64,000 nt of DNA, taken from NCBI GenBank assembly GCA_031260055.1, contig JAIRKQ010000025.1, positions 2,302-66,301 of the forward strand. The letters run 5' to 3'. Below are positions 57,538 to 64,000 of the stretch, piece by piece. Origin of the DNA: Puniceicoccales bacterium (lineage in GTDB: Bacteria > Verrucomicrobiota > Verrucomicrobiia > Opitutales > JAIRKQ01). The position numbers and the translations under genes were made by a program. The notes under the pieces were generated by a model. The model was not told the origin of the DNA, searched no databases, and worked only from the letters and a program-made list of their open reading frames with translations. Each line of letters begins with the position of its first letter. The first letter of the stretch is position 1.

Positions 57538-58746
57538 CTACTCAATCGCCGACAATAACCACTGGGCAACGGACATATCTTTTCCCGCAGACAGTATTTT
57601 TTTCAACTCCTTCGAAACCTTTCGCAATGGACGCTGAAGCTTTTCGTCGTCGATATATGGCAAAATATATTTTGCAACTGATTTTGGTTTCAGTTGGAAT
57701 TGTATAAATTCCCGCCACACGCATCGATTGAGTAAAATATTTGCAATGCCCAAATGTTTTACATTCACCAACATTTTCCCAATGGCATAGGTCAGTGGAT
57801 GCGTTTTATACACAATGGCACCGGGAATACCACTCAAACAGCATTTTAAAGACATGGTGCCTGAACTCATGATGGCTGCACATACCTCAATGCTATTCCC
57901 GTCTGGCACAAATGTTATTTTATCTAACAGTTTTGAAAATTTCCTATTTAAAATTTTTCGCAGGATAGCCAATATCGTTTCATCGGGGTATACCACAATT
58001 GCCGTACATTCGCTCCTGTGTTTCAAAATCTCATTGAAACTGTCCAATAGTAAGGGGAAAATTTTTTTAACGGTGGGACCTCTGCTGCCAGGAAGTAGCA
58101 CAATTGGTCCCCTAGGGTTGTACGTGACATTTAATTTGTAAGAATCCGCCACAAACGGATGTCCCACAAAGCTGACGTCAAGATCGGTTTTCTCAAACCA
58201 GTTCCTTTCAAACGGGAAAATTGTTGCCATTCGATCGACAAATTTTGCCATTTGGAAGCATCGTTTTGGTTTCCATGCCCAAATTTGCGGCGATATGTAG
58301 TAGAGAACTTTTATGTCTCCCCTGGCCTTTTGGGAAAGCTTAGCGTCGAATAGCATTTGAGCCAGCCGAATGTTGAAACCTGGATAATCTATGAGACAAA
58401 TGGCCCGGGGATGATTGTTTTTGATCCACAAAAATACCTGCTTTATCAATTTGGCAAAAAAGAAAATGTTCCGCCAAACTTCGTATAAACCAACCACCGA
58501 AAATTTTGTCATGTCCAAAATTACATCAGCTCCAGCATTTCTGAGTGCACTTCCTCCAAATGCCGCAACATTGATATCGGGACGTATTTTTTTAACTTCA
58601 GCCAGCATTTCTGCTGCATGCTGATCACCCGAGTGTTCTCCTGCTATGATAACTAAATCTATCCGTTGTCCCCGGTGGGACTCTAGGTCAAACTTTAAAT
58701 TCTTCACCTGTGAGGCAGAGTAAAATGAGGCAAATGGTTTTGTCAA
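57538..58746 (-). CDS. lpxB: lipid-A-disaccharide synthase
   Basis: LVIIAGEHSGDQHAAEML N-terminal motif and overall GT19 pattern. The TTG start is uncertain. Confidence 0.9.
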   Translation of the reverse strand: MTKPFASFYSASQVKNLKFDLESHRGQRIDLVIIAGEHSGDQHAAEMLAEVKKIRPDINVAAFGGSALRNAGADVILDMTKFSVVGLYEVWRNIFFFAKLIKQVFLWIKNNHPRAICLIDYPGFNIRLAQMLFDAKLSQKARGDIKVLYYISPQIWAWKPKRCFQMAKFVDRMATIFPFERNWFEKTDLDVSFVGHPFVADSYKLNVTYNPRGPIVLLPGSRGPTVKKIFPLLLDSFNEILKHRSECTAIVVYPDETILAILRKILNRKFSKLLDKITFVPDGNSIEVCAAIMSSGTMSLKCCLSGIPGAIVYKTHPLTYAIGKMLVNVKHLGIANILLNRCVWREFIQFQLKPKSVAKYILPYIDDEKLQRPLRKVSKELKKILSAGKDMSVAQWLLSAIE

Positions 58747-58925
58747 ACCATATGGAGAAATCCACGGTGGAACGCGTATCGATTCCTATATTTAGCACAT
58801 CTCACAATGTTTCCCGGATAAAACTTCAAGAAGCCCACCAAATGACTTGATAAGCTTCCTCCCTTGGAACATGTTGCCCCATTAGATACTTCTGGGCAAC
58901 AAAAACTGTTTTCTAAAATGCACTT

Positions 58926-59802
58926 TTACAGTGCTTCCATAGCAGCCTTCAATGCAGGAAATTTTTCCCTAAGTTCTGTAAGTTTTCTTCTACCACTTCT
59001 TCCGCGCATTTCATACCTTATAGCTTCACATATGGTACGCCAGTATTCTTGATTTGCTGAGTCTGGCGATGAAAGTTTGCTTAAAATTAAATTAGTGAGG
59101 TTTTGTAGTTGATCTCCGAACTTCCTCCGCCGACCTTTATTGGCATAGACATCCACCATCGCCTGGGCTAAAGGAGTTACCCGTCCATCAACTTCTTCAT
59201 TTTGTAAATCTTCCGGCGACAGTTCGCATTCCATTCGGATATACTCTTTTGCCTCTTTTAGAGTAGGACGTTTCTCCATTTTTCTCCATAAAAACTTTTT
59301 TCCAGATAACATATAATACCTAAAATCATCCGCCGCCGCCTGATCTCCCCCGAAAAGCTCTAGCCAGCGATCTTCTGATATGCCTTTGACCAGTTGAATA
59401 GCTATTCGATATCCGTCGGGTAAGAAGAGTACAAGTGCTAATTTGCTCGGGTCAGTTCTGCCTTTGAAACGCAACAATTCAACGATTTCATCCTCCGTCA
59501 AATTTGCAGCCTCTTCTGCTGTAAGATCCAATAAAGATGCCGAATCATCTTGGATTTCGTCGTGCAACAACGCGAGGGGCGGCAATTGCCACCGAACGTG
59601 TTGCCAGAACATCCTCAGGTACTTTTCCTGAAGGGATACTAACTGCTTTATCACATACTACAACGGAATCTCCAACCTTTGCAGCAGTGCTTGCTTTTTC
59701 CAGTGATTTCGTACCTAATTGACCGTAATTGTGGGCAAACGGCGTTTTTTCTACTCTTCTCATAGGAAAGATACCTAGAAACAATTTTCCACGAATTGTC
59801 AA
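58926..59802 (-). pseudogene. paralog 1 of the tandem unknown family, split by a frameshift in the linker
   Basis: The N-terminal fragment ORF 59545..59802 (MTIRGKLFLGIFPMRRVEK...PRVVA) and the C-terminal ORF 58926..59654 (...AANLTEDEIVELLRFKGR...) are in different frames. Together they align to the full length of paralog 2. Confidence 0.6.
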
Positions 59803-59850
59803 TATTTTGAAATATTTTTTTGAATTTATCGATATTTTTACACGGAAACT
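59797..59850 (-). promoter_or_regulatory. conserved 5' cassette of paralog 1 (TTGACA box, TATCGATA palindrome)
   Basis: Nearly identical to 60877..60930 upstream of paralog 2. The minus strand reads ...AAAAATATCGATAAATTCAAAAAAATATTTCAAAATATTGACAAT. Function is inferred from position and conservation only. Confidence 0.35.
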
Positions 59851-59982
59851 TCCTTGCTTTCCTTAAAACTTTCGTTTGCCGAGACCTTCGTTTTTTAGCA
59901 TTACAATGGGAAGAAGAACTTCCCAAAATGAGGGGAAACATTTACCAATGGAGTAGCAAAAACTGTTTTCTAAAATGCACTT

Positions 59983-60882
59983 TTACAATGCTTTCATAGC
60001 AGCCTGTAATGTAGGATATTTTTCCTCAAGTTCTATAAGTCTTGCTTCGCCATCTTCACCACCTTCGCCATCTTCACCAACAGTCTCTTCTATTACGGCT
60101 TCACATATGTTATTCCAGTATACTTGATTTTCTTCGTCGGACGGTGGAAGTTTGCCAAATATGGAATCAACAATTTTTTGTAATCGTCTTTCAAACTCTT
60201 CCCGCCGAGCTTTATGGCCATAAGTATCCACTACCGCCTGTGCTACGATTCCCGATCGCTCTTCAAATCTTTCCTTTGGGAAACCCTGCGGCAGAGGTTC
60301 ACTTTCTACTCGGACAAGCTCTTCTATCTCTTCTACTGTTGGGATCTCAACTATAATTTTATCAAGGTAATCTTCTGGAAATAATATATACTTGAAATGA
60401 TCCGCCGATACGACATCCCCCCCGATGGAACTTAGTAAGAAACCTCCCGACATTCTATTTACCATTTGAGTAACCAAATGTTCCCCGTTTGGTAAAAAAA
60501 GCATAATGGCAAATTTGCTCGCGTCAAACCGGCCTTTAAAGTAAAGTTGTTCGCCAATTTCGTCCTCCGTTAGACTTGCAGTATTTTCCACCGTAAATTC
60601 CAGCCAACATCTTGGAGGAGTACCTGTTGAAGTCTGTGGAACGGCGGCAGGTAGAGCGGTATCAGCCACCGCAAAACGTGCTACTAACCCATCTTCGGAC
60701 ACTTTTCTCGGAGGAATACCAACTTTTTTATCGCCTATTACAACGGGATCTCCAACCTTTACGGCAGCGCTTGCTTTTTCCGGTGATTTCATACCTAATT
60801 GATCATAACCGTGAACAGACTGCGTTCTTTCTACTCTTCTCATAGGAAAGATACCTAGAAACAATTTTTTCCAAATTGTCAA
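59983..60882 (-). CDS. paralog 2 of the tandem unknown family
   Basis: 299 aa and acidic. It shares the blocks VGIPPRKVSED, WLEFTVEN.ASLTEDEI, LFLPNG, RREEFERRLQ, ENQVYW and EKYPTLQAAMKAL with its neighbours. Confidence 0.7.
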   Translation of the reverse strand: MTIWKKLFLGIFPMRRVERTQSVHGYDQLGMKSPEKASAAVKVGDPVVIGDKKVGIPPRKVSEDGLVARFAVADTALPAAVPQTSTGTPPRCWLEFTVENTASLTEDEIGEQLYFKGRFDASKFAIMLFLPNGEHLVTQMVNRMSGGFLLSSIGGDVVSADHFKYILFPEDYLDKIIVEIPTVEEIEELVRVESEPLPQGFPKERFEERSGIVAQAVVDTYGHKARREEFERRLQKIVDSIFGKLPPSDEENQVYWNNICEAVIEETVGEDGEGGEDGEARLIELEEKYPTLQAAMKAL

Positions 60883-60930
60883 TATTTTGAAATATTTTTT
60901 CGAATTTATCGATATTTTTACGCGGAAACT
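60877..60930 (-). promoter_or_regulatory. conserved 5' cassette of paralog 2
   Basis: Same cassette as 59797..59850 (TATCGATA at 60907-60914, TTGACA complement at 60877-60882). Confidence 0.35.
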
Positions 60931-61021
60931 TTCTTAAACTTTCGTTCTCCGAGACCCTAACGGGAATTCACAATCACTTTTCGAAAAACATGCTCCTCTC
61001 TAGAGTCGTGGGAGCGCAAGG

Positions 61022-61906
61022 TTAAAAGTCAAATGTAGGAAATCCTTCCCTAGCTCTTGCACGTTTTTCTTCACCATCTCCATTTGCTCTGTGAGACTCA
61101 TCTATCATAGCTTGAGTAGCTCCACGTATGGTATCCCAACATACTTGATTTTCTGCGTTAGGCGGTGGAAATTTGCCAACGATCAAATCGGCAACATTTC
61201 GTAGTTGCCTTTCAAACTCTTCCCGCCGATCTTTATGGATATAAGTGTCTATTATCGCCTGGCTCACGCCGTCTATTAGTCCATCAAATTTTCCCTTCAG
61301 TGGACCCCGTGGCAAAAATTCACATTCCGCTCGTACATCATTACCTACCATTTCTTTCGTCGGGATTTCATCTATTTTTCCTTCTTTAGCGAAAGACTCT
61401 TCTGGAAAGAATATACACATAAGGTCATCCGCCGACATTGCATTTTCCCCGATGAGTTCCAATAGGCGATTTCCTGATATTCTATTGGCTAGTTGAATAG
61501 CTATTTGATACCCGTCTGGCAAGAAAAGTACAATGCCAAATTTGCCCACATCAAACCTTCCCTGGAAGAACAGTAATCGGATAATTTCGTCCTCTGTCAG
61601 ATTTGCAGCATTCTCCACCGTAAACTCCAGCCAAGACGTCGGAGAGTTAACCGCTGAACTTTGGAGAACAACAACAGGTGGAGCAACAACACGAGGGGCA
61701 GAATCAACTACCACCGAACGTGTCGCCAGCACATCCTCGGACACTTTCCTCGGAGGAATACCAACTATCTTACCGCCTACTACAATGAAATCTTCATCTT
61801 CTGCAGCGTCGTAGTCTTCTCTCACTAGTTTTGCAACTAATTGGTCACGCCTGTGCGTACACTTCATTATTTCTAATCCGTCCATACGGAAAACACCCAG
61901 AAACAA
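61022..61906 (-). CDS. paralog 3 of the tandem unknown family
   Basis: 294 aa, homologous to paralogs 2 and 4. An in-frame TAG sits where the other copies have codon 4, so the real start is probably an internal TTG or ATG. Confidence 0.68.
   Translation of the reverse strand: MFLGVFRMDGLEIMKCTHRRDQLVAKLVREDYDAAEDEDFIVVGGKIVGIPPRKVSEDVLATRSVVVDSAPRVVAPPVVVLQSSAVNSPTSWLEFTVENAANLTEDEIIRLLFFQGRFDVGKFGIVLFLPDGYQIAIQLANRISGNRLLELIGENAMSADDLMCIFFPEESFAKEGKIDEIPTKEMVGNDVRAECEFLPRGPLKGKFDGLIDGVSQAIIDTYIHKDRREEFERQLRNVADLIVGKFPPPNAENQVCWDTIRGATQAMIDESHRANGDGEEKRARAREGFPTFDF
61615..61812 (-). repeat. 198-nt block nearly identical to 62847..63044 (paralog 3 copy)
   Basis: Hand alignment gives about 12 mismatches in 198 nt against paralog 4, while the 3' halves of the two genes are much more diverged. 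Confidence 0.8.
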
Positions 61907-62172
61907 TTTCTTCTAAATTGTCAATGCTTTGACAATAGTCCCTCTTGGTTTGTCAAAATTTTTATACTATGCGGCTCCATTGCTTCCCCGGAAGCTTCAT
62001 TTTCCAACATCTCACGGGAAAAAGAAATGATTCCCTCCCATGAGGTGAAAAGACGGAGGAACCTAAAAAAGTCAGCATTTGATATCAAAAAAATGAAGAC
62101 CATGTGACAGGGCAAGAAAATTGTCCTATGCGACCGTGATTTCACGGCCATTGATTCTTGTCTTTTTGATAT

Positions 62173-63156
62173 TTACTCTTCGAGAAATGCCTCCTCCTCT
62201 AGTCCTAAGAGTCCAAAACTAAATGCAGGATATCTTTCCTTCAGCTTTACAACTTCTTCTTTACTAGCTGCGTCCCGTGCGATTACATGTCCAATAGTTT
62301 TACGCAAGCTATCCCAATATACTTGATTTCCTTCGTTTGGCGGTGGTAATTTGCTTAAAATTAAATCAACGATACTTCGTTGTTCATCTTGCATCTTGTT
62401 CAGCCTATCTTTATTGAGTAAAATGTCTCTCGTTTCCTGGGCCAAAACAGTTACCCATTCATCGACTTTTTCCGGCGGTAAATCTTGTGGGAAAAGTCCG
62501 GGTGCTTCTCGTAGATTTCCCTCTATTTCTTCTACCGTCAACCCTTCGGTTGTATCTTCCGAAAAATCTTCAAATAATATATCCATAAAGTCCTCTATCG
62601 CCGTTAATTCTCTTGTGAGAACCTCTCCAGGTTTGAAAAATTTTATTCTTTCGAAAAATTCCGCAAAAGTGGGAGACTCTCCGATAGACTTTAGCAGGCA
62701 ATCTCCCGATATACCATTGACCAATTGAATAGCTATTTGGTGCCCGTTTGGCAAGAGCAGTATAAACCCAAATTTTCTTGAGTCAAATATACCCGGAAAA
62801 GGCAACCATGCAACAATTTTATCCTCCGGTAGATTTGCAGTATTCGCCACCGTAAACTCCAGCCAAGACGTCGGAGGGTTAACCGCTGAACTTTGGAGAA
62901 CAACAACAGGTGGAGCAACAACGCAAGGGGCAAAATCAACTACCACCGAACGTGCCGCCAGCACATCCTCGGACATTTTCCTCGGAGGAATACCAACTAT
63001 CTTACCGCCTACTATGGCAAAATCTTCATCTTCTGCAGCATCGTTTTGTTCGTCCACTAGCTTCGCACCCAATTGACCATAATCGTGAACAGACAGCACT
63101 TTTTCTATTTTTCTCATAGGGAGGACATTTAGAAAAAACTTTCTCAACTCTGTCAA
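62173..63156 (-). CDS. paralog 4 of the tandem unknown family (longest copy, with an extra acidic insert)
   Basis: 327 aa. It has the same conserved blocks plus an insert, FAEFFERIKFFKPGEVLTRELTAIEDFMDILFEDFSEDTTEGL. Confidence 0.7.
   Translation of the reverse strand: MTELRKFFLNVLPMRKIEKVLSVHDYGQLGAKLVDEQNDAAEDEDFAIVGGKIVGIPPRKMSEDVLAARSVVVDFAPCVVAPPVVVLQSSAVNPPTSWLEFTVANTANLPEDKIVAWLPFPGIFDSRKFGFILLLPNGHQIAIQLVNGISGDCLLKSIGESPTFAEFFERIKFFKPGEVLTRELTAIEDFMDILFEDFSEDTTEGLTVEEIEGNLREAPGLFPQDLPPEKVDEWVTVLAQETRDILLNKDRLNKMQDEQRSIVDLILSKLPPPNEGNQVYWDSLRKTIGHVIARDAASKEEVVKLKERYPAFSFGLLGLEEEAFLEE
62847..63044 (-). repeat. 198-nt block nearly identical to 61615..61812 (paralog 4 copy)
   Basis: See the partner feature. 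It encodes VGGKIVGIPPRK.SEDVLA.RSVVVD.AP.VVAPPVVVLQSSAVN.PTSWLEFTV. Confidence 0.8.
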
Positions 63157-63261
63157 TATTTTGAAATAAATTTTTTAATTTGTTAATTTTTTCACATTTA
63201 AAACCCCCTGCTTCCCCGGAAGCTTCGCTCCTCACGCAATGAACCCATTCCCTGCCAACCC

Positions 63262-64000
63262 CTAGGATTTTAACAATTCCCGCAGGGTTTTATCAACCAT
63301 GGTGGGGTTTGCTTGGCCCCGGGTTTCCTTCATGACAAACCCTTTAATGGCGTTGATTGCGGAATCTTTTCCGCCACGAAATTCTCGGGCTGCTTTTTCA
63401 TTTTTTTCAATGGCAGTTTGGCAAAATGCGAGCAGTTCGTCGTAGTTGGCATTCTGTTTTAATCCCTGTTCCTGTACGATTTCGTTAGCCGATTTCCCCG
63501 TTTGAAACATTTCGATAAAAACGCCCTGGGCAATCTGTTTCGAAATCACACCATCGTCCGTCAATTTTACCAGTTCTGCTAGGGCTTGGGGGGAAATTTT
63601 ACAGCTATTGGTTTCCATAATATCCAACTCTTTGTCGGAACTTTGATCGACATTTGATAATTCACGCAACAGGTCATTGGCGATTATATTAGCAATGGCC
63701 CGCGGATTATTGTGAATTGCTACGGCTGTTTCGAAAAAATCACTCAATGTTTTTTTCGTACAAATTACGGATGTTATGGTATATGGTAGGTCATAGTGAC
63801 TAAAGAAACGTTCCTGTTTCGCGAATGGCAATTCCGGGATCTCAGATGTAATCGTAGCTTTTGTTTCCTGCGATATCCGTATGGGCATCAAATCCGGATC
63901 GGCAAAATACCTATAGTCAAATGCTGTTTCCTTGGTACGCATCACGGTTGTTGCATTGGTATCTGCGTTCCATCGCCGTGTTTCCTGGTAAACCTTTCCG
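63262..64000 (-). CDS. gatB: Asp/Glu-tRNA amidotransferase subunit B (C-terminal part; N-terminus beyond window edge)
   Basis: The frame stays open to base 64000 (GKVYQETRRWNADTNATTVMRTKETAFDYRYFADPDLMP), matching the GatB core. The C-terminus is a YqeY-like tail. The track start at 63945 is internal. Confidence 0.9.
   Translation of the reverse strand, partial: GKVYQETRRWNADTNATTVMRTKETAFDYRYFADPDLMPIRISQETKATITSEIPELPFAKQERFFSHYDLPYTITSVICTKKTLSDFFETAVAIHNNPRAIANIIANDLLRELSNVDQSSDKELDIMETNSCKISPQALAELVKLTDDGVISKQIAQGVFIEMFQTGKSANEIVQEQGLKQNANYDELLAFCQTAIEKNEKAAREFRGGKDSAINAIKGFVMKETRGQANPTMVDKTLRELLKS

Follow-up and report, generated by a model that had tools for sequence, protein, structure and literature searches.

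We analysed a 64,000-nucleotide stretch of contig JAIRKQ010000025.1, referred to here as the window, from a metagenome-assembled genome (MAG) of a Puniceicoccales bacterium (Verrucomicrobiota). The region 58.9-63.2 kb consists of four head-to-tail paralogs on the minus strand, in the order W4-W3-W2-W1, located between gatB and lpxB. A tblastn search across the window detected no further family copies outside this four-gene array. The original prediction had proposed segmental recombination among these copies. The four genes are as follows.

62173-63117, minus strand: W4, paralog of 314 aa counted from ATG.
61022-61885, minus strand: W3, paralog of 287 aa counted from ATG.
59983-60843, minus strand: W2, paralog of 286 aa (= P0006).
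58926-59763, minus strand: W1, paralog with a disrupted reading frame.

The W4 protein was 100% identical to the NCBI entry 'hypothetical protein LBE98_03165 [Puniceicoccales bacterium]' (P0001). W1 carries a 2-bp deletion relative to L1, its intact ortholog in a sister MAG: AGAATTGAT is replaced by AGA--TGAT at ~59545-59550, which yields an in-frame TGA (codon AGA followed by TGA) directly after ...VVARRNPR. W1 is likely a fresh pseudogene or an assembly error.

A near-identical block of 198 nt with about a dozen differences had been proposed for W3 and W4. In an ungapped alignment, 61615-61812 and 62847-63044 differed at 12 of 198 positions (93.9% identity), consistent with the proposal. The similarity extended over 213 nt, in which 14 scattered mismatches, mostly transitions of all kinds, were found. 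Identity fell to 59% over the 151 nt upstream of this tract and to 62% over the 560 nt downstream, where strong divergence had also been predicted. In the multiple alignment, W3 and W4 were 93-94% identical within the tract and 57-69% identical in the remainder, and W1 and W2 were merely 63-72% identical to W3/W4 over the block columns. As diverged sequence lies on both sides, the tract is a patch with two boundaries, and a single unequal crossover was rejected. The insert attributed to W4 is real, but its size had been overestimated at ~45 aa; it measures about 20 aa, is also present in the ortholog of the sister MAG, and is accompanied by a 13-aa C-terminal extension (314 vs 287 aa).

W1 and W2 were similar to each other at both ends. 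Their 5' ends (59740-59850 vs 60820-60930) differed at 8 of 111 positions, in agreement with the original prediction. The near-identity claimed for their 3' ends was recovered after a shift of one base (47 of 51 positions identical between 58900-58950 and 59957-60007); without this shift, identity was 36%. The longest exact words common to paralogs were 45 and 41 nt, the former being the longest within the W3/W4 blocks. The putative conversion tracts in the window are listed below.

61600-61812, minus strand: W3 side of the W3-W4 tract, encoding DAAEDEDF...VGIPPRKVSEDVLA.RSVVVD.AP.VVAPPVVVLQSSAVN.PTSWLEFTVEN, a predicted disordered N-terminal segment.
62832-63044, minus strand: W4 side of the W3-W4 tract, identical to the W3 side at 199 of 213 positions.
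59661-59841, minus strand: W1 side of the 5' tract, covering the upstream element and the first ~34 codons.
60741-60921, minus strand: W2 side of the 5' tract, identical to W1 at 161 of 181 positions.
58900-58986, minus strand: W1 side of the tract at the 3' end and flank, pairing with W2 59957-60043.
59957-60043, minus strand: W2 side of the tract at the 3' end and flank, 89% identical to W1 over 87 nt.

We evaluated these tracts using a GENECONV-style test in our own implementation, not the published GENECONV or RDP programs. The maximal-scoring run of concordant polymorphic sites was compared with that in 2000 permutations of the alignment columns. None of the 2000 permutations reached the observed score for the W3-W4 or the W1-W2 tract (p <= 5e-4), and the other four window pairs gave p >= 0.02. 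Uniform divergence along the genes, the outcome that would contradict recombination, was not observed; identity was uneven far beyond chance.

Nonsynonymous (dN) and synonymous (dS) divergence was calculated as Nei-Gojobori estimates. Between W3 and W4, the block contained 4 differences in 52.8 synonymous sites (dS 0.08), whereas the remainder of the gene contained 62.8 in 124 (dS 0.84; Fisher p = 1e-8); over the 24 codons upstream of the block, dS was 0.50. Paralog dS was ~0.6-1.1 over most of the gene length. Within the block, dN/dS was about 0.9. Because the synonymous sites of the W3-W4 tract are homogenised, protein-level selection cannot account for the tract.

A search of 5.8 billion protein sequences identified relatives in just one other Puniceicoccales MAG. 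Its contig L001 is syntenic with the window and carries L4, L3, L2, a gene fragment and L1, followed by lpxB and a DUF58 gene. W1, W2, W3 and W4 each have a one-to-one ortholog in this sister MAG. L4 is cut by the end of L001, so that 130 nt of its block could be compared. Outside the tracts, W1-L1, W3-L3 and W4-L4 were 91-96% identical, with dS of 0.10-0.14. Within the block, this order was reversed: W3 and W4 were 94% identical to each other, and identity to the orthologs was 84% for W3-L3 and 87% for W4-L4 (the latter over the 130 nt). We then counted the informative sites in the W3/W4/L3/L4 quartet. Downstream of the block, 152 sites supported orthology, one the same-genome grouping and one the cross grouping. 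Inside the block, the corresponding counts were 1, 3 and 1 (Fisher p = 3e-6 vs outside). The 3' end of W1/W2 similarly gave 3, 6 and 0 sites, vs 137, 2 and 2 elsewhere (p = 1e-6). The C-termini differ by genome (...AAMEAL/AAMKAL in the window and ...ALEIPS/AMKIAS in L001), in agreement with this grouping by genome.

The comparison with orthologs also bears on an explanation without recombination, in which the block is the most constrained part of the gene owing to a protein motif or an embedded nucleic-acid element. The motif (V/I)xIPxxKVxExxLxxRS and the WLEFTVEN boundary are kept family-wide, and 55-aa antisense open reading frames (ORFs) overlap both blocks, as this explanation would expect. 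The homogenised synonymous sites (dS 0.08 vs 0.84) and the low identity of W1 and W2 to W3/W4 over the block argue against it. Moreover, the block was less conserved between orthologs (84-87%) than the gene remainder (91-96%), with dN/dS of ~1 or more, which contradicts selection at the nucleotide level. An Rfam scan of 58000-64000 revealed no relevant RNA family. We therefore consider constraint alone highly unlikely as the source of the block.

Another explanation is that repeats were collapsed or mis-threaded when short metagenome reads were assembled, and that this generated the common block. The sequence is indeed a MAG contig, and the names of the sister contigs (k119_...) suggest short-read de Bruijn assembly. 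However, the blocks differ at 14 scattered positions, and their longest exact word, 45 nt, is well under the suggested k of 119, so that the assembly graph would be unambiguous. Both blocks are located in one contig with unique flanks. In addition, an identical array layout and an equal loss of orthology signal are seen in the independently assembled MAG, which derives from another sample. An assembly artefact is thus extremely improbable.

The sister genome contains putative conversion tracts of its own. L1 and L2 matched at 216 of 224 positions spanning the upstream element and the 5' coding region, and L3 and L4 at 50 of 52. L2 and L4 matched at 68 of 73 positions within the folded domain, where W2 and W4 matched at 52 of 73. 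The permutation test gave p <= 5e-4 for each of these three pairs. A 76-nt insert encoding WQEAMKRNTADLS... is common to L2 and L3 (92% identical) and is found in none of the W copies. Between L2 and L1, a chimeric gene remnant (L001 3275-3490) joins ~175 nt of a type-2 middle (87% identical to L2 and 84% to W2) to the 3'-terminal ~36 nt of a type-3 gene. At the sequence level, this remnant is evidence of deletion or unequal recombination inside the array.

Two more MAGs were found to have the same locus, with the array between gatB and lpxB and with 4 and at least 6 copies. Copy numbers in the four MAGs are therefore 4, 4 plus the chimeric fragment, at least 6, and 4. Contig L003, from one of these two further MAGs, has a 5' mosaic of its own (92.9% over 308 nt). 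The isolate names may point to a termite-gut origin of the MAGs, although a literature search on their source gave no specific result. The independent tracts and the differing copy number indicate that the array is subject to conversion and to gain and loss of copies. The conserved boundaries of the array in the window are the following.

63262-63945, minus strand: gatB, 3' part, conserved upstream boundary of the array.
57538-58746, minus strand: lpxB, conserved downstream boundary of the array.

Ectopic gene conversion among the four direct-repeat paralogs of this orphan family is very probably the best explanation of these data. The two-sided tracts, the homogenised synonymous sites, the lost orthology signal, the permutation tests and the independent tracts of the sister genome all support the gene conversion or segmental recombination proposed in the original prediction. 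Short patches of ~50-230 nt would have been copied from paralog to paralog by non-reciprocal homologous recombination between direct repeats. The patch described first would have rendered W3 and W4 near-identical across 213 nt. W1 and W2 would have been homogenised at the upstream element and the first ~34 codons, and again at the last codons and the 3' flank. RecA-type recombination would presumably be needed. The upstream element and the N-terminal motif IPxxKVxExxLxxRS may keep identity enough to seed pairing, so that tracts recur at the gene ends. The outcome would be concerted evolution of a common N-terminal module, with helical C-terminal domains that diverge.

The dS of the W3/W4 tract (0.08) resembles that of the orthologs (0.10-0.14), which suggests that the tract arose at about the time when the two MAGs diverged. 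At least some of the events in the array are later than the separation of these two closest genomes. The exchange had been called ongoing, which is not demonstrated; the divergence of the tract corresponds to an evolutionary time scale.

Several points weigh against gene conversion as described here. Its timing is loosely constrained, as the tract dS is close to the ortholog dS and just 5 informative quartet sites lie in the block. Donor and recipient are not assignable, because the first half of the W3/W4 block is L4-like and the second half is L3-like. The N-terminal motif is kept family-wide, so that some protein-level constraint contributes to the similarity. Finally, all sequences are single consensus MAG assemblies.

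The W2-L2 pair (window 59983-60843 vs L001 2261-3262) was far more diverged (dS 0.36, 78-83% nucleotide identity) than the other three ortholog pairs. The putative L2-L4 conversion tract (L001 2737-2809) accounts for part of this divergence. W2 might instead be the ortholog of the additional, degraded copy in L001. Ortholog dN/dS was 0.5-0.9 over the folded domain and exceeded 1 for W3-L3 and W4-L4 in the N-terminal block. These values are high for bacterial genes and suggest that selection is relaxed or diversifying across the family as a whole.

A common upstream element precedes each of the 16 copies in four MAGs, with constant spacing to the ATG; it was found upstream of every copy in L001, L003 and L004 too. 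The element comprises TTGACA, ~34-39 nt upstream of the ATG, next a GAAA-N-TTTC-like palindrome, which reads GGAAAATTGTTTC in several copies, and then a pyrimidine-rich stretch. Its positions in the window are as follows.

63118-63200, minus strand: W4 upstream element, TTGACA ... palindrome ... ATG.
61886-61968, minus strand: W3 upstream element, conserved.
60844-60926, minus strand: W2 upstream element, conserved.
59764-59846, minus strand: W1 upstream element, conserved.

The element is non-coding, because some copies contain in-frame stops there. It resembles a -35 box with an operator, and a role as promoter or operator is inferred. An obvious Shine-Dalgarno sequence was not present in the element, and the resulting mRNA would be very short or leaderless. 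A scan for the sigma-70 consensus did not call the element as a promoter, and no good -10 sequence was found at 16-18 nt from TTGACA.

The upstream element is relevant to the likeness to cassette-type variation systems that the original prediction had suggested. In such a programmed system, the array would act as a reservoir of segments, and these would be shuffled frequently into one expressed copy, varying a protein exposed to host or phage, as in pilE/pilS, vlsE and msp2. The tandem copies with patchy segmental exchange would fit this scheme, and the frameshifted W1 could serve as a donor only. The fast evolution (ortholog dN/dS of 0.5-0.9, and >1 in the N-terminal block for W3-L3 and W4-L4) and the differing copy number across related MAGs would also fit. 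However, the same element with an ATG at a fixed distance on 16 of 16 copies indicates that there is no single expression site; every copy appears to be equipped for expression. Of the four window copies, three are complete ORFs, not truncated silent cassettes. The C-terminal domains, the most diverged parts, keep strict one-to-one orthology in the window, which indicates that no shuffling occurs there. The positions of the exchanged segments pointed the same way: the window tracts are N-terminal and 3'-terminal, and one short tract within the domain was found in the sister MAG (L2-L4). With 14 accumulated substitutions, the W3-W4 tract has an age close to the MAG split. A simple hydropathy scan of the proteins revealed neither a signal-peptide-like N-terminus nor a convincing transmembrane segment. 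No recombinase or reverse transcriptase was apparent next to the array, the annotated neighbours at the sister locus being housekeeping genes and the window ORFs beyond lpxB and gatB not being scanned. Programmed variation is thus very unlikely, and the likeness to cassette systems is not supported.

A diversity-generating retroelement was also rejected. The tract mismatches are not adenine-specific, and the genes annotated next to the sister array have housekeeping functions (window ORFs beyond lpxB/gatB not scanned). Two metagenome scans, one with a protein pattern and the other with an exact 30-mer of the block, found no further contigs with the window copies. Exact-protein look-ups for W4, W3 and W2 likewise returned no further contigs.

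We examined the proteins by structure prediction and homology searches. In an AlphaFold2 model of W3, residues 1-77 had a predicted local distance difference test (pLDDT) score below 50 and are predicted to be disordered, and residues 78-287 formed a confident all-helical domain. A domain-only model from 22 homologs reached a pLDDT of 90.3 and a predicted template modelling (pTM) score of 0.87. The W3-W4 tract corresponds to residues ~25-95, an A/P/V-rich disordered region that contains the family-wide motif and extends up to the WLEFTVEN start of the domain. Scans of the paralogs against Pfam, NCBIfam, PADLOC and PHROGs gave nothing credible. A Foldseek search of PDB with the full-length and domain-only models gave no match better than E = 0.5, with a template modelling (TM) score of ~0.2 (0.24), and a profile search of PDB sequences gave merely a chance serpin match (E = 0.77).

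An exhaustive hidden Markov model (HMM) search of 1.84 billion representative proteins gave 38 matches, 29 of them at E <= 1e-10. The weakest matches were eukaryotic multi-saposin proteins (E = 3e-9 to 8e-4; 5-11 bits for single repeats). A faint saposin-like signature, T.EEI...(V/L)R.EC..LP......(F/V)D......Q...D.Y ... IVDLI..KLPPP, was located at profile positions 147-216 (W3 residues ~147-216; window ~61240-61445). An hhalign comparison with a saposin-repeat alignment gave 83% probability over 55 columns, and single paralog sequences did not match the Pfam SapB models. Of the six cysteines expected in a saposin-like protein (SAPLIP), five are absent, and the third position ('ECE' motif) is partly conserved. 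No saposin fold was among the top 50 listed Foldseek matches of the domain model. Given the missing cysteines and the lack of saposins among the listed structural matches, the saposin-like relationship of the helical domain is an unconfirmed lead. By these searches, the protein family is lineage-restricted, undescribed and fast-evolving.

Tandem repeats were also noted within the family. Close to the C-terminal end of W2, an 18-nt tandem duplication (window 60045-60079) codes for the acidic sequence GEDGEGGEDGE; it is further expanded in L2. A 388-aa paralog in MAG Gsp477_bin153 is extended at its C-terminus (L003 3625-3935) by three basic tandem repeats of ~33 aa. These repeats (RFPVSRPTPKSFGTNRENTR.GK.NKEFKK) are 84% identical in DNA, and similar tails are present on P0020 and P0021.

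Variable tandem arrays at a fixed locus together with high dN/dS would be typical of interaction or conflict genes. It is conceivable, though rather unlikely, that the array encodes fast-evolving host- or partner-interacting proteins confined to a small Puniceicoccales clade. The disordered N-terminal module (IPxxKVxExxLxxRS) would then be a targeting, secretion or docking signal kept uniform by recurrent conversion, and the novel helical domain, possibly distantly saposin-like, would diversify in each copy. If true, recombination would here maintain a layout of 'constant handle, variable head'.

In this tandem bacterial gene family, patchy concerted evolution is seen in a clean and statistically supported form, and two close genomes allow conversion to be told apart from selection. 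There is also a consequence for annotation and phylogeny, as trees from the 5' third of these genes mislead. The protein family is perhaps more interesting: of 1.84 billion representative proteins, ~30 are confident members, Pfam has no model for it, and its fold, predicted with confidence, has no relative in PDB. The residual interest lies in this fast-evolving family and its conserved upstream element.

We compared the array with known systems of exchange between paralogs. In Neisseria pilE/pilS, Borrelia vlsE/vls and Anaplasma msp2, a single expression site bears the promoter, the many silent cassettes are truncated, and the variable segments are exchanged at high frequency. The W array shares with them clustered related sequences and patchy segment transfer, which is unidirectional. 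In contrast, it has neither a single expression site nor truncated silent cassettes, and shows no sign of high-frequency exchange of variable segments. The closest documented analogue is probably the Helicobacter pylori bab family (babA/babB/babC), together with the sab outer-membrane paralogs. The bab genes share homology at their N- and C-terminal ends and each have a paralog-specific middle; conversion affects the first ~60-240 bp and the 3' region (PMC4552749). The W copies have the same arrangement of homologous ends and a paralog-specific middle. However, bab genes are dispersed surface-adhesin loci, in which conversion has been observed in the infected host and is linked to phase-variable CT repeats. 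The W array is tandem; neither surface localisation nor phase-variable repeats are indicated, and events are visible only on an evolutionary time scale. The tufA/tufB genes of Salmonella undergo concerted evolution as duplicated genes by RecA-dependent ectopic gene conversion, which homogenises whole genes under strong purifying selection. In both tuf and the W array, non-reciprocal homologous exchange would keep parts of the paralogs more similar, also at synonymous sites, than expected from their age. Unlike tuf, the W array consists of fast-evolving genes (dN/dS 0.5-0.9) that are homogenised in short patches only, and mosaics result. Concerted evolution in patches is well known among tandem paralogs, and here it is found in a previously undescribed protein family.

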